DNA of 64,000 nucleotides from Promethearchaeota archaeon Loki_b32 (GTDB lineage Archaea > Asgardarchaeota > Lokiarchaeia > Sigyniarchaeales > SOKP01). The position numbers and the translations under genes are program-made. The stretch is from assembly GCA_005223125.1 (NCBI GenBank), contig NJBH01000008.1:64001-128000 (forward strand), written 5' to 3'. This document shows positions 32,463 to 32,917 of this stretch, piece by piece (the stretch's first letter is position 1; each line of letters opens with the position of its first letter). The notes below the pieces were generated by a model. The model was not told where the DNA came from and searched no databases. It saw only the letters and a program-made list of their open reading frames with translations.

Positions 32463-32579
32463 CTACACCCCCTTGTTTATTCCTTTTAAATTTAACGTTT
32501 AAAAGCAAAAATTTTAATTATTAGCGTTTATTATTCCTATTTACTTGTAACCATATAAGTAGGTATTTTCTTATAAAAT

Positions 32580-32607
32580 AACCGATACTTATAAAATGGT
32601 TATATAA
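32580..32607 (+). promoter_or_regulatory. Candidate BRE/TATA promoter for the 5S precursor
   Basis: ACCGATAC-TTATAAAA lies about 25 nt upstream of the start of the leader stem (~32612). Confidence 0.45.
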
Positions 32608-32649
32608 TGGTGCTAATAACCATATAAATTAAAAGCAACTCGCTTAGTG

Positions 32650-32805
32650 CCGGAAGTTAAACTTGTATGCGTTGTAGATAGTACTGTAGTTGCGATCTAT
32701 GGGAAACTACAAACTGTAAATTTGTTTACGGTCATGGTTTACGAGGAAAATACCCGGTCCCATCCGAAAAACCAGCTAATTTCGAGATGGTTCGGGAACC
32801 CGGAA
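32650..32805 (+). rRNA. rrf: 5S rRNA gene, circularly permuted (3' half 32656-32720, linker TTTG, 5' half 32725-32768 plus 32799-32805), with a 30-nt intron
   Basis: The reassembled sequence has all five 5S helices. It also has loop C CCGAAC, the helix III AA bulge (CCGGAAGUUAA), loop E UAGUA/GAA and a GCGA loop. Length is 116 nt plus a 4-nt linker. Confidence 0.85.
32769..32798 (+). other. Putative BHB/BHL-type intron in 5S loop C
   Basis: UCCG/CGGG 4-bp helix, AAA bulge, AACCA/UGGUU inner stem; removal restores CCCAUCCGAAC. Confidence 0.7.
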
Positions 32806-32917
32806 ATGCTATTTTATGTGGTTATAGTGTTTTCCATTTTTAGATTCCTCTAAAAATAAGTTTTTATATTATTAATTATATGCTTAATTAATACGGAATA
32901 ACTCTTGTAGTGATACC

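Follow-up and report, generated by a model that had tools for sequence, protein, structure and literature searches.

Loop C is among the most conserved parts of 5S rRNA, and 5S is the one rRNA for which we found no report of an archaeal splicing-type intron in the literature. The 5S gene of the Asgard archaeon Promethearchaeota archaeon Loki_b32 carries 30 nt within this loop, at a joint where insert-free relatives have no counterpart. The question raised by this locus is what these 30 nt are, and whether they would leave the transcript or stay with the mature RNA. BHB introns are known in archaeal tRNA, in 16S/23S rRNA (Thermoproteales and others; PMC6125680, PMC5829648) and in some mRNAs, circular 16S/23S intermediates are also known, and a permuted 23S has been described in Pyrococcus (PMC7758197). 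Our search of the literature returned no permuted or intron-containing archaeal 5S, and circular 5S only as low-level, unvalidated reads in Sulfolobus (PMC3326292).

A circularly permuted 5S rRNA gene

The gene lies at positions 32656-32805 (+) of the window, by which we mean the whole 64,000-nt stretch of Loki_b32 contig NJBH01000008.1 that was analysed; all window features below are on this strand. It is circularly permuted. Read 5' to 3', it begins with GUUAAAC and continues through the 3' strand of helix II, loop E and helices IV/V to helix I. After helix I, whose two strands are linked by a UUUG loop, come loop A, the 5' strands of helix II and of helix III (the latter CCGG, 32754-32757), and loop C. 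Within loop C, UCCCAUCCGAA is followed by the insert (32769-32798), by CCCGGAA (32799-32805) and by the trailer, which starts at 32806. Exon 1 (32656-32768) is thus the permuted 5S body, running from GUUAAAC, the continuation of the helix III 3' strand, through loop C up to CCGAA. The 7-nt micro-exon CCCGGAA supplies the last base of loop C, the helix III 3' strand and the conserved AA bulge. The letters and coordinates given for this region by a first-pass annotation, including the extent of the 30-nt insert and the 7-nt CCCGGAA, are all correct.

The gene is flanked by sequences that can pair with each other. One half of a long outer processing stem (UAACCAUAUAAA, 32617-32628) pairs with 32813-32824 in the fold, and this stem is also found in homologues with its sequence altered. 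Between this stem and the gene lies the leader part of a circularisation motif (32645-32655), consisting of the outer helix strand UAGUG, a decoy CCGG (32650-32653) and the bulge bases AA, and the predicted 5' cut falls between 32655 and 32656. The trailer (32806-32824) contributes the third bulge base A, the outer helix strand UGCUA (32807-32811) and the 3' half of the outer stem (32813-32824), and the predicted 3' cut falls between 32805 and 32806. The locus therefore shares with permuted genes of the Thermoproteus SRP RNA type a 3' part that is encoded first, natural ends joined by a loop, and a predicted cut motif formed by leader and trailer.

Searching the window with Rfam gave no 5S match at the curated gathering thresholds. 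At relaxed E-value thresholds there was a partial match of 18 bits, limited to the 3' two-thirds; the match is partial and weak because the gene is permuted. We also noticed that an ORF of 68 codons (32647-32853, +) extends across the entire 5S gene and that the mature circle, predicted at 120 nt, has one frame free of stops. A search of a protein collection with the through-reading ORF returned no candidate homologues, and the open frame over the 5S gene is probably a coincidence. Upstream of the leader, at about 32540-32612, a long palindrome surrounds two TTATAAAA boxes. Its spacing is BHB-like, with an outer helix of 5-9 bp and 33-37 nt between the would-be cuts; it is present in many relatives about 160-185 nt upstream of the 5S anchor and covaries between gene types. 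It could be a DNA palindrome of the promoter region or a separate small RNA.

The permuted locus is the only 5S of this Asgard archaeon. It is kept in 50 of the 54 genomes of the genus and in 109 of the 135 genomes of the family, and compensating changes are seen in helices I, II and IV. The Loki_b32 assembly (71 contigs, 95.5% complete) contains no canonical archaeal 5S, and two single-contig (closed) genomes of the genus have the permuted locus and no other 5S. We rejected the sole canonical 5S in the assembly (80.8 bits, contig C68; L001, L005) as the 5S of the host, as it is of bacterial type and its neighbour is a 23S, likewise of bacterial type, that contains a group I intron; the archaeal 23S of Loki_b32 is on contig C48. 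Contig C68 is most likely contamination of the MAG, and this accounts for the only 'good' 5S match in the assembly. Among the family members scored, no 5S exceeds the Rfam cut-off, and the sister family has ordinary 5S genes of 50-68 bits. When rotated and spliced in silico, the Loki_b32 5S can be aligned over its full length with sister-family 5S (identity 79/114), and the alignment is gapless both at the intron site and at the rejoining site.

Geometry of the loop C insert and the splicing enzymes

In order, the insert comprises the third base (A) of a 5' bulge, a hairpin AACCA-loop-UGGUU, the tetranucleotide CGGG and the first two bases (AA) of a 3' bulge. The hairpin stem has 5 bp, formed by AACCA (32770-32774) with UGGUU (32788-32792). 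The exon strand UCCG (32763-32766) pairs with the insert strand CGGG (32793-32796) to give a central helix of 4 bp. The 5' splice bulge is AA|A (32767-32769) and the 3' splice bulge is AA|C (32797-32799). Excision of 32769-32798 restores UCCCAUCCGAAC, closed by CCGG (32754-32757) and CCGG (32800-32803).

Four pairs of cuts would restore the identical product. Only the pair 32768/69 and 32798/99 yields a central helix with 4/4 pairs together with the 5-bp inner helix, and the other three leave 1-2 central-helix pairs each. The position of the cut inside the bulge was inferred from the cut rule and from insert-free homologues. A generic scan with the strict motif has a high background, about 5 matches per 370 nt in AT-rich DNA, and the cut pairs were therefore fixed by insert-free homologues and by shuffling. 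Of 20,000 composition-matched shuffles of the insert, 0.06% satisfied the rule at one or another of the valid cut pairs. For every insert family tested in this way, the rule held only at the cut pair that restores the sequence (p 0.0004-0.008).

The first-pass annotation had applied the BHB cutting rule to the insert, and the motif is canonical at one splice site. On comparison with the strict hBHBh' form, the 4-bp central helix is present, and so is a 3-nt 5' bulge next to an intron helix; the 5' site is thus canonical. The 3' site is relaxed, since AAC faces five unpaired bases (UCCCA) and the outer-helix count is 0. As the 3' site is not a clean bulge, we class the insert as relaxed HBh'/BHL and not as strict BHB. 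All the elements of this relaxed form were found, that is, a canonical bulge, a 4-bp helix, an intron helix, a second cut sited in a loop and an enzyme of the broad-specificity type. A strict 3' site would be obtained only if the leader CCGG (32650-32653) acted as an outer helix before circularisation. Neither the intron motif nor the circularisation motif appears in the minimum-free-energy fold of the precursor.

Removal of the insert restores a functional sequence, as judged by insert-free homologues, by a 27-mer found in other archaea and by the gapless alignment with the sister family described above. The restored loop sequence, as the annotation had given it, is identical to that of insert-free genes of the same genus. 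Its further suggestion, that a restored loop of 12 nt is a trait of eukaryotic length, does not hold, and we rejected the 'eukaryote-length loop'. Ordinary, unpermuted archaeal 5S genes contain the restored 27-mer letter for letter and so share the loop, and loop C has 12 or 13 nt within the genus and 13 nt in the sister family.

The genome encodes the enzymes that such an intron would need. Two EndA paralogues of about 200 aa each are present. In the alpha paralogue (L075:1165-1770), whose best alignment is with the alpha subunit of Aeropyrum pernix, the catalytic His is conserved, as is a lysine that lines up with K44 of the Crenarchaea-type specific loop. The beta-like paralogue (L076:1426-2040) has Ser in place of the catalytic His of Methanocaldococcus EndA and, as expected from its sequence, would be the structural beta subunit. 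RtcB is also encoded (L077). Introns of the HBh', hBH and BHL forms are removed by no enzymes other than (alpha-beta)2 and epsilon2, with help from the specific loop, which is conserved in TACK and Asgard archaea (PMC5829648).

Distribution and covariation of the insert and its relatives

Three layouts of the gene occur in the genus. Type B starts GGAA|GUUAAAC and ends ...UCCCAUCCGAACCCGGAA|N. In type A, the layout in this window, 30 nt separate CCGAA from CCCGGAA and the gene is otherwise as in type B. Type C, which has its permutation point in loop C, opens with GGAA|CCAUCCGAAC... and closes with ...ACCCGGUC|A. The insert-free type B genes of the genus read ...UCCCAUCCGAACCCGGAA, which is exactly the spliced product predicted for the gene in the window. 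The predicted pre-RNAs fall in length classes of 120-123, 150-153 and 180-181 nt.

Across the family, an insert at the loop C site was found in 19 of the 87 loci examined, in four genera and as 14 distinct sequences. It is 30 nt long in 18 of the 19 carriers and 31 nt in the remaining one (13 and 1 of the distinct sequences). The comparison of presence, length and covariation that the annotation had proposed thus gives a patchy occurrence, a length of 30 nt (once 31) and hairpin pairs that covary. The 4-bp/3-nt geometry recurs in homologues: the central helix has 4/4 pairs in 13 of the 14 distinct variants, and one C-to-U change preserves its pair. The inner helix has 2-9 bp in all variants and is maintained by unrelated sequences, among them AAUCA/UGGUU, AUCCA/UGGAU, AGUA/UACU, GGCU/GGCU, AGCU/GGCU and one 9-bp form. 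Among the nine distinct sequences of the genus, which derive from related genomes and are not independent, 98.3% of the cells are paired and three of the five inner-helix pairs have changed on both sides. The covariation score was reached by none of 500 shuffles, and pairing fell to 51-62% when the partner was slid by one column. The 4-bp/3-nt spacing and the CGGG-AA end are retained while the hairpin sequence is replaced.

Carriers and non-carriers interleave. L039, which has the insert, and L046, which does not, differ at 3 of 120 positions; L036, with the insert, and the type C gene L015, without it, show four differences, and the Loki_b32 gene is much farther from L039. Presence and absence among near-identical exons therefore point to repeated precise gain or loss, as for introns. 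Introns commonly behave in this way, expansion segments seldom.

The circularisation motif is kept as well. All 48 genus loci analysed show 4/4 pairing of the leader CCGG/CUGG with the terminal CCGG, followed by a 3-nt stretch on each strand. The outer leader/trailer helix has 3-8 bp and covaries, and in one genome it is replaced by a wholly different 15-bp helix. The inner helix is 0, and hence this motif is relaxed too. The CCGGAA copy in the leader varies (CUGGAC, CCGGAC, CCGGAU, UCGGAA). The 3' copy, CCCGGAA, is invariant in all type A and B loci of the genus and stands directly 3' of CCGAA in insert-free relatives. With drift confined to the leader copy, the 7-nt piece most simply ends up in the mature RNA.

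In type C, which makes up about half of the genus (L011, L013-L021, L023-L028, L033, L037, L041, L042 and others), the permutation point has shifted by 14 nt, from helix III to loop C (UC|CC), and the leader has a matching new decoy, CUGG. Loci L148-L151 of genus g20 also have a moved permutation point, and in L068, from another family, it lies at loop B/helix III. As the permutation point differs among relatives, the position of the joint evolves.

Inserts of similar size occur elsewhere in the 5S genes of relatives. Loop D carries two or three unrelated families of 30-nt inserts, with a central helix UUGC/GCAG or UUGC/GUAG, an inner helix of 4-9 bp and an outer helix of 3-6 bp drawn from helix IV. 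The first family (L008, L034, L035, L044, L051) and the second (L033, L047, L049, L050, L052, L055) are strict hBHBh'; the third (L054) is relaxed, with an outer helix of 1 bp. Both a loop C and a loop D insert are present in L008 and L044, giving a pre-RNA of 180-181 nt. In L143-L145 of genus g20 the 5' strand of helix IV holds an insert of 29-30 nt that is strict BHB. The cut rule does not hold for inserts of about 30 nt in the loop capping helix I (L139-L141, genus g22), nor for a 31-nt insert in the 3' strand of helix II (L048, genome G069). These may be retained extensions or something else, and not every insert of about 30 nt is therefore demonstrably an intron. In L045 (genome G077), a 31-nt loop C insert follows UCCCAU, five bases upstream of the usual site. 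It contains a near-exact copy of the adjacent exon (GGAUAAUACCCGGUCCC), which makes up most of it, with 4/4 central pairs and an inner helix of 5, so that the 5' half of the rule holds, and from its sequence it looks like a young intron that arose by local duplication.

The 23S of Loki_b32 itself, on contig C48, has comparable inserts when defined relative to the 23S of the sister family. One of 30 nt (L004:2784-2813, -) interrupts the core at CUCUCUUA|AGGUAGCC and is strict, with outer, central and inner helices of 3, 4 and 3 bp. Another of 125 nt (L004:1964-2088, -), at GUCGUGAG|ACAGGUCG, has a central helix of 4, an inner helix of 10 and an outer helix of 0; this is the relaxed form without an outer helix and matches the loop C insert. 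The rule does not hold for a 31-nt insert farther along the same 23S. It is unlikely that inserts would be retained at such core positions of 23S, and both intron forms therefore appear to be used in this genome. Taken over several 5S sites and the 23S, and among unrelated sequences, the length of the short inserts is nearly constant at 30 nt, with 31 in three cases and 29 in one. In the whole genome (4.1 Mb) ARAGORN reported 23 tRNA genes, 12 of them flagged for introns, with intron placements that are unreliable; this suggests that many tRNA genes are disrupted beyond what ARAGORN can read.

Proposed processing of the transcript, alternatives and implications

Based on the anatomy of the insert, its exact boundaries, its covariation and distribution, the enzymes of the host and the strict BHB motifs of sister inserts in 5S genes and in the host's own 23S, the insert is most probably a relaxed BHB (bulge-helix-loop) intron, cut out and religated separately from the circularising cut 7 nt away. 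The first-pass reading of a 30-nt splicing-endonuclease intron in loop C with a 7-nt exon thus gains support from the boundaries, the covariation, the fixed length and the sister BHB inserts, all of which are features of sequence.

From the same features we infer the cleavage, ligation, order and circularity of the 5S transcript. In the transcript, a central helix of 4 bp would form between UCCG of loop C and CGGG at the 3' end of the intron. A 3-nt bulge between this helix and the intron hairpin would hold the 5' splice site AA|A, and the 3' splice site AA|C would fall in the three nucleotides that separate the central helix from the helix III CCGG. Both sites would be cut by the alpha-beta splicing endonuclease, and RtcB would join CCGAA to CCCGGAA. 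The second motif, formed by leader and trailer around CCGG, would be cut at GGAA|A, 7 nt downstream, and in the leader at GGAA|G, and joining of these ends would rebuild helix III and close the RNA into the 120-nt form. A circular product is the default expectation given the helix I cap.

The CCGG at 32800-32803 could take part in this in two ways. After circularisation it would pair with the helix III 5' strand, giving the bulge-helix-loop form. In the precursor it could instead pair with the leader decoy CCGG to give a compact tandem array, made up of the outer helix, AAA, CCGG/CCGG, AAG opposite AAC, UCCG/CGGG, AAA and the hairpin, in which all four predicted cuts would be AA|N. Four simultaneous cuts would leave a 7-mer held by 4 bp, and the two rounds should therefore be sequential, as the annotation had supposed. 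The 7-mer would then be covalently attached on one side throughout, and either order of the rounds would lead to the same 120-nt product. A scan of metagenome contigs for the restored 27-mer junction, which is common to the three layouts of the genus, found only canonical 5S genes of other archaea, the matches being long genomic contigs of GC-richer archaea.

An alternative for the 30 nt is that they are a retained expansion hairpin, so that the mature 5S keeps an extra stem-loop emerging from loop C. Insertions retained in the ribosomal 5S are known from the Halococcus literature, and the inserts of L139-L141 and L048, which break the cut rule, could be of this kind. Expansion segments drift gradually in length and sequence; the loop C insert is instead all-or-none, with a fixed length and exact boundaries, and its spacing and CGGG-AA end persist while the hairpin is replaced. 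Retention would also lock four highly conserved bases of loop C in a helix, yet the loop C exon bases are equally conserved in carriers and non-carriers, and inserts of the same size in the core of the organism's own 23S are strict BHB motifs. We consider a retained hairpin unlikely.

Far less probable is a one-step scheme that dispenses with the micro-exon, in which the 5S would end at CCGAA (32768), everything downstream would be trailer, and the leader CCGGAA would serve as the helix III strand. It draws on the fact that the leader has a second CCGGAA directly before GUUAAAC, which the minimum-free-energy fold pairs with the helix III 5' strand. This leader copy, however, is the one that varies, even at the conserved AA bulge, and when worked out by hand, cuts at 32649/32650 and 32768/32769 have no BHB-like geometry. 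The trailer moreover keeps its outer helix beside CCCGGAA as in insert-free genes, with compensating changes, and the product would go without a base C of loop C. On the geometry and the conservation of the two CCGGAA copies we rejected this scheme. It is more improbable still that the locus is a decaying pseudogene, with a working 5S in DNA that was not assembled. The assembly is in many contigs and short of complete, as would suit such a view, but the retention of the locus across genus and family, the compensating changes in its helices and the closed genomes that have nothing else all speak against it, and the one canonical 5S in the assembly adjoins a bacterial 23S on a contaminant contig.

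As a relaxed BHB intron, the insert can be placed among known systems. It resembles the relaxed (HBh'/hBH/BHL) introns of archaeal tRNA (PMC5829648) in having a 4-bp exon-intron helix, one clean 3-nt bulge and a loop-like second site, in being short and frameless, and in belonging to a host whose alpha-beta EndA keeps the specific-loop lysine. It differs from them in that the host RNA is 5S, a circularising endonuclease site lies 7 nt away and the leader may provide an outer helix. With the BHB introns of archaeal 16S/23S it shares the character of a splicing-endonuclease intron at a highly conserved rRNA site, the strict 30-nt insert in the organism's own 23S being an example, and it departs from them in its 5S host and its uniform length of 30 nt.

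The permutation has parallels of its own. To our knowledge there is no intron within a few bases of the junction in the Thermoproteus SRP RNA. The permuted SRP RNA of Thermoproteus is likewise a permuted ncRNA gene, with an endonuclease motif in leader and trailer and a need for cutting and end-joining, and parallels the permutation frame of the 5S, not the intron (PMC4731332). The permuted 5S rRNAs of organelles (PMC4267664) share the rearranged domain order; unlike the Asgard 5S, they stay permuted in the final RNA, are not rejoined, and have neither introns nor an endonuclease motif. The mechanism of the intron is a known one, and the novelty lies in the 5S host, in a 7-nt exon beside the circularisation joint and in a length that is uniformly 30 nt.

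If splicing does occur, this 5S would mature only after tRNA-type cutting and ligation had taken place at least twice, in order and within 40 nt, and one of these rounds would act on a 7-nt exon. The archaeal splicing endonuclease and RtcB would then have a wider range of substrates than is known at present, and the failure of gene finders to see 5S in these genomes would be accounted for in part. The analysis also provides practical rules for annotating permuted, insert-bearing 5S genes.

A wider reading, which we offer tentatively and consider possible though rather doubtful, is that the 5S of this family, already a back-to-front gene dependent on tRNA-type joining, has seen repeated invasion by uniform 30-nt mini-introns at four or more sites, and that the one sited 7 nt from the circularisation joint imposes ordered, multi-round splicing. 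The constancy of 30 nt could then reflect a measuring constraint of the machinery or templated gain, through local exon duplication as in L045 or through reverse splicing. If the insert is spliced, the family would offer many close alleles with and without introns, at several sites and of one length, which is rare material for tests of BHB intron gain and loss. If repeated colonisation by 30-nt mini-introns is true, these genes would be a live record of the birth and loss of BHB introns.
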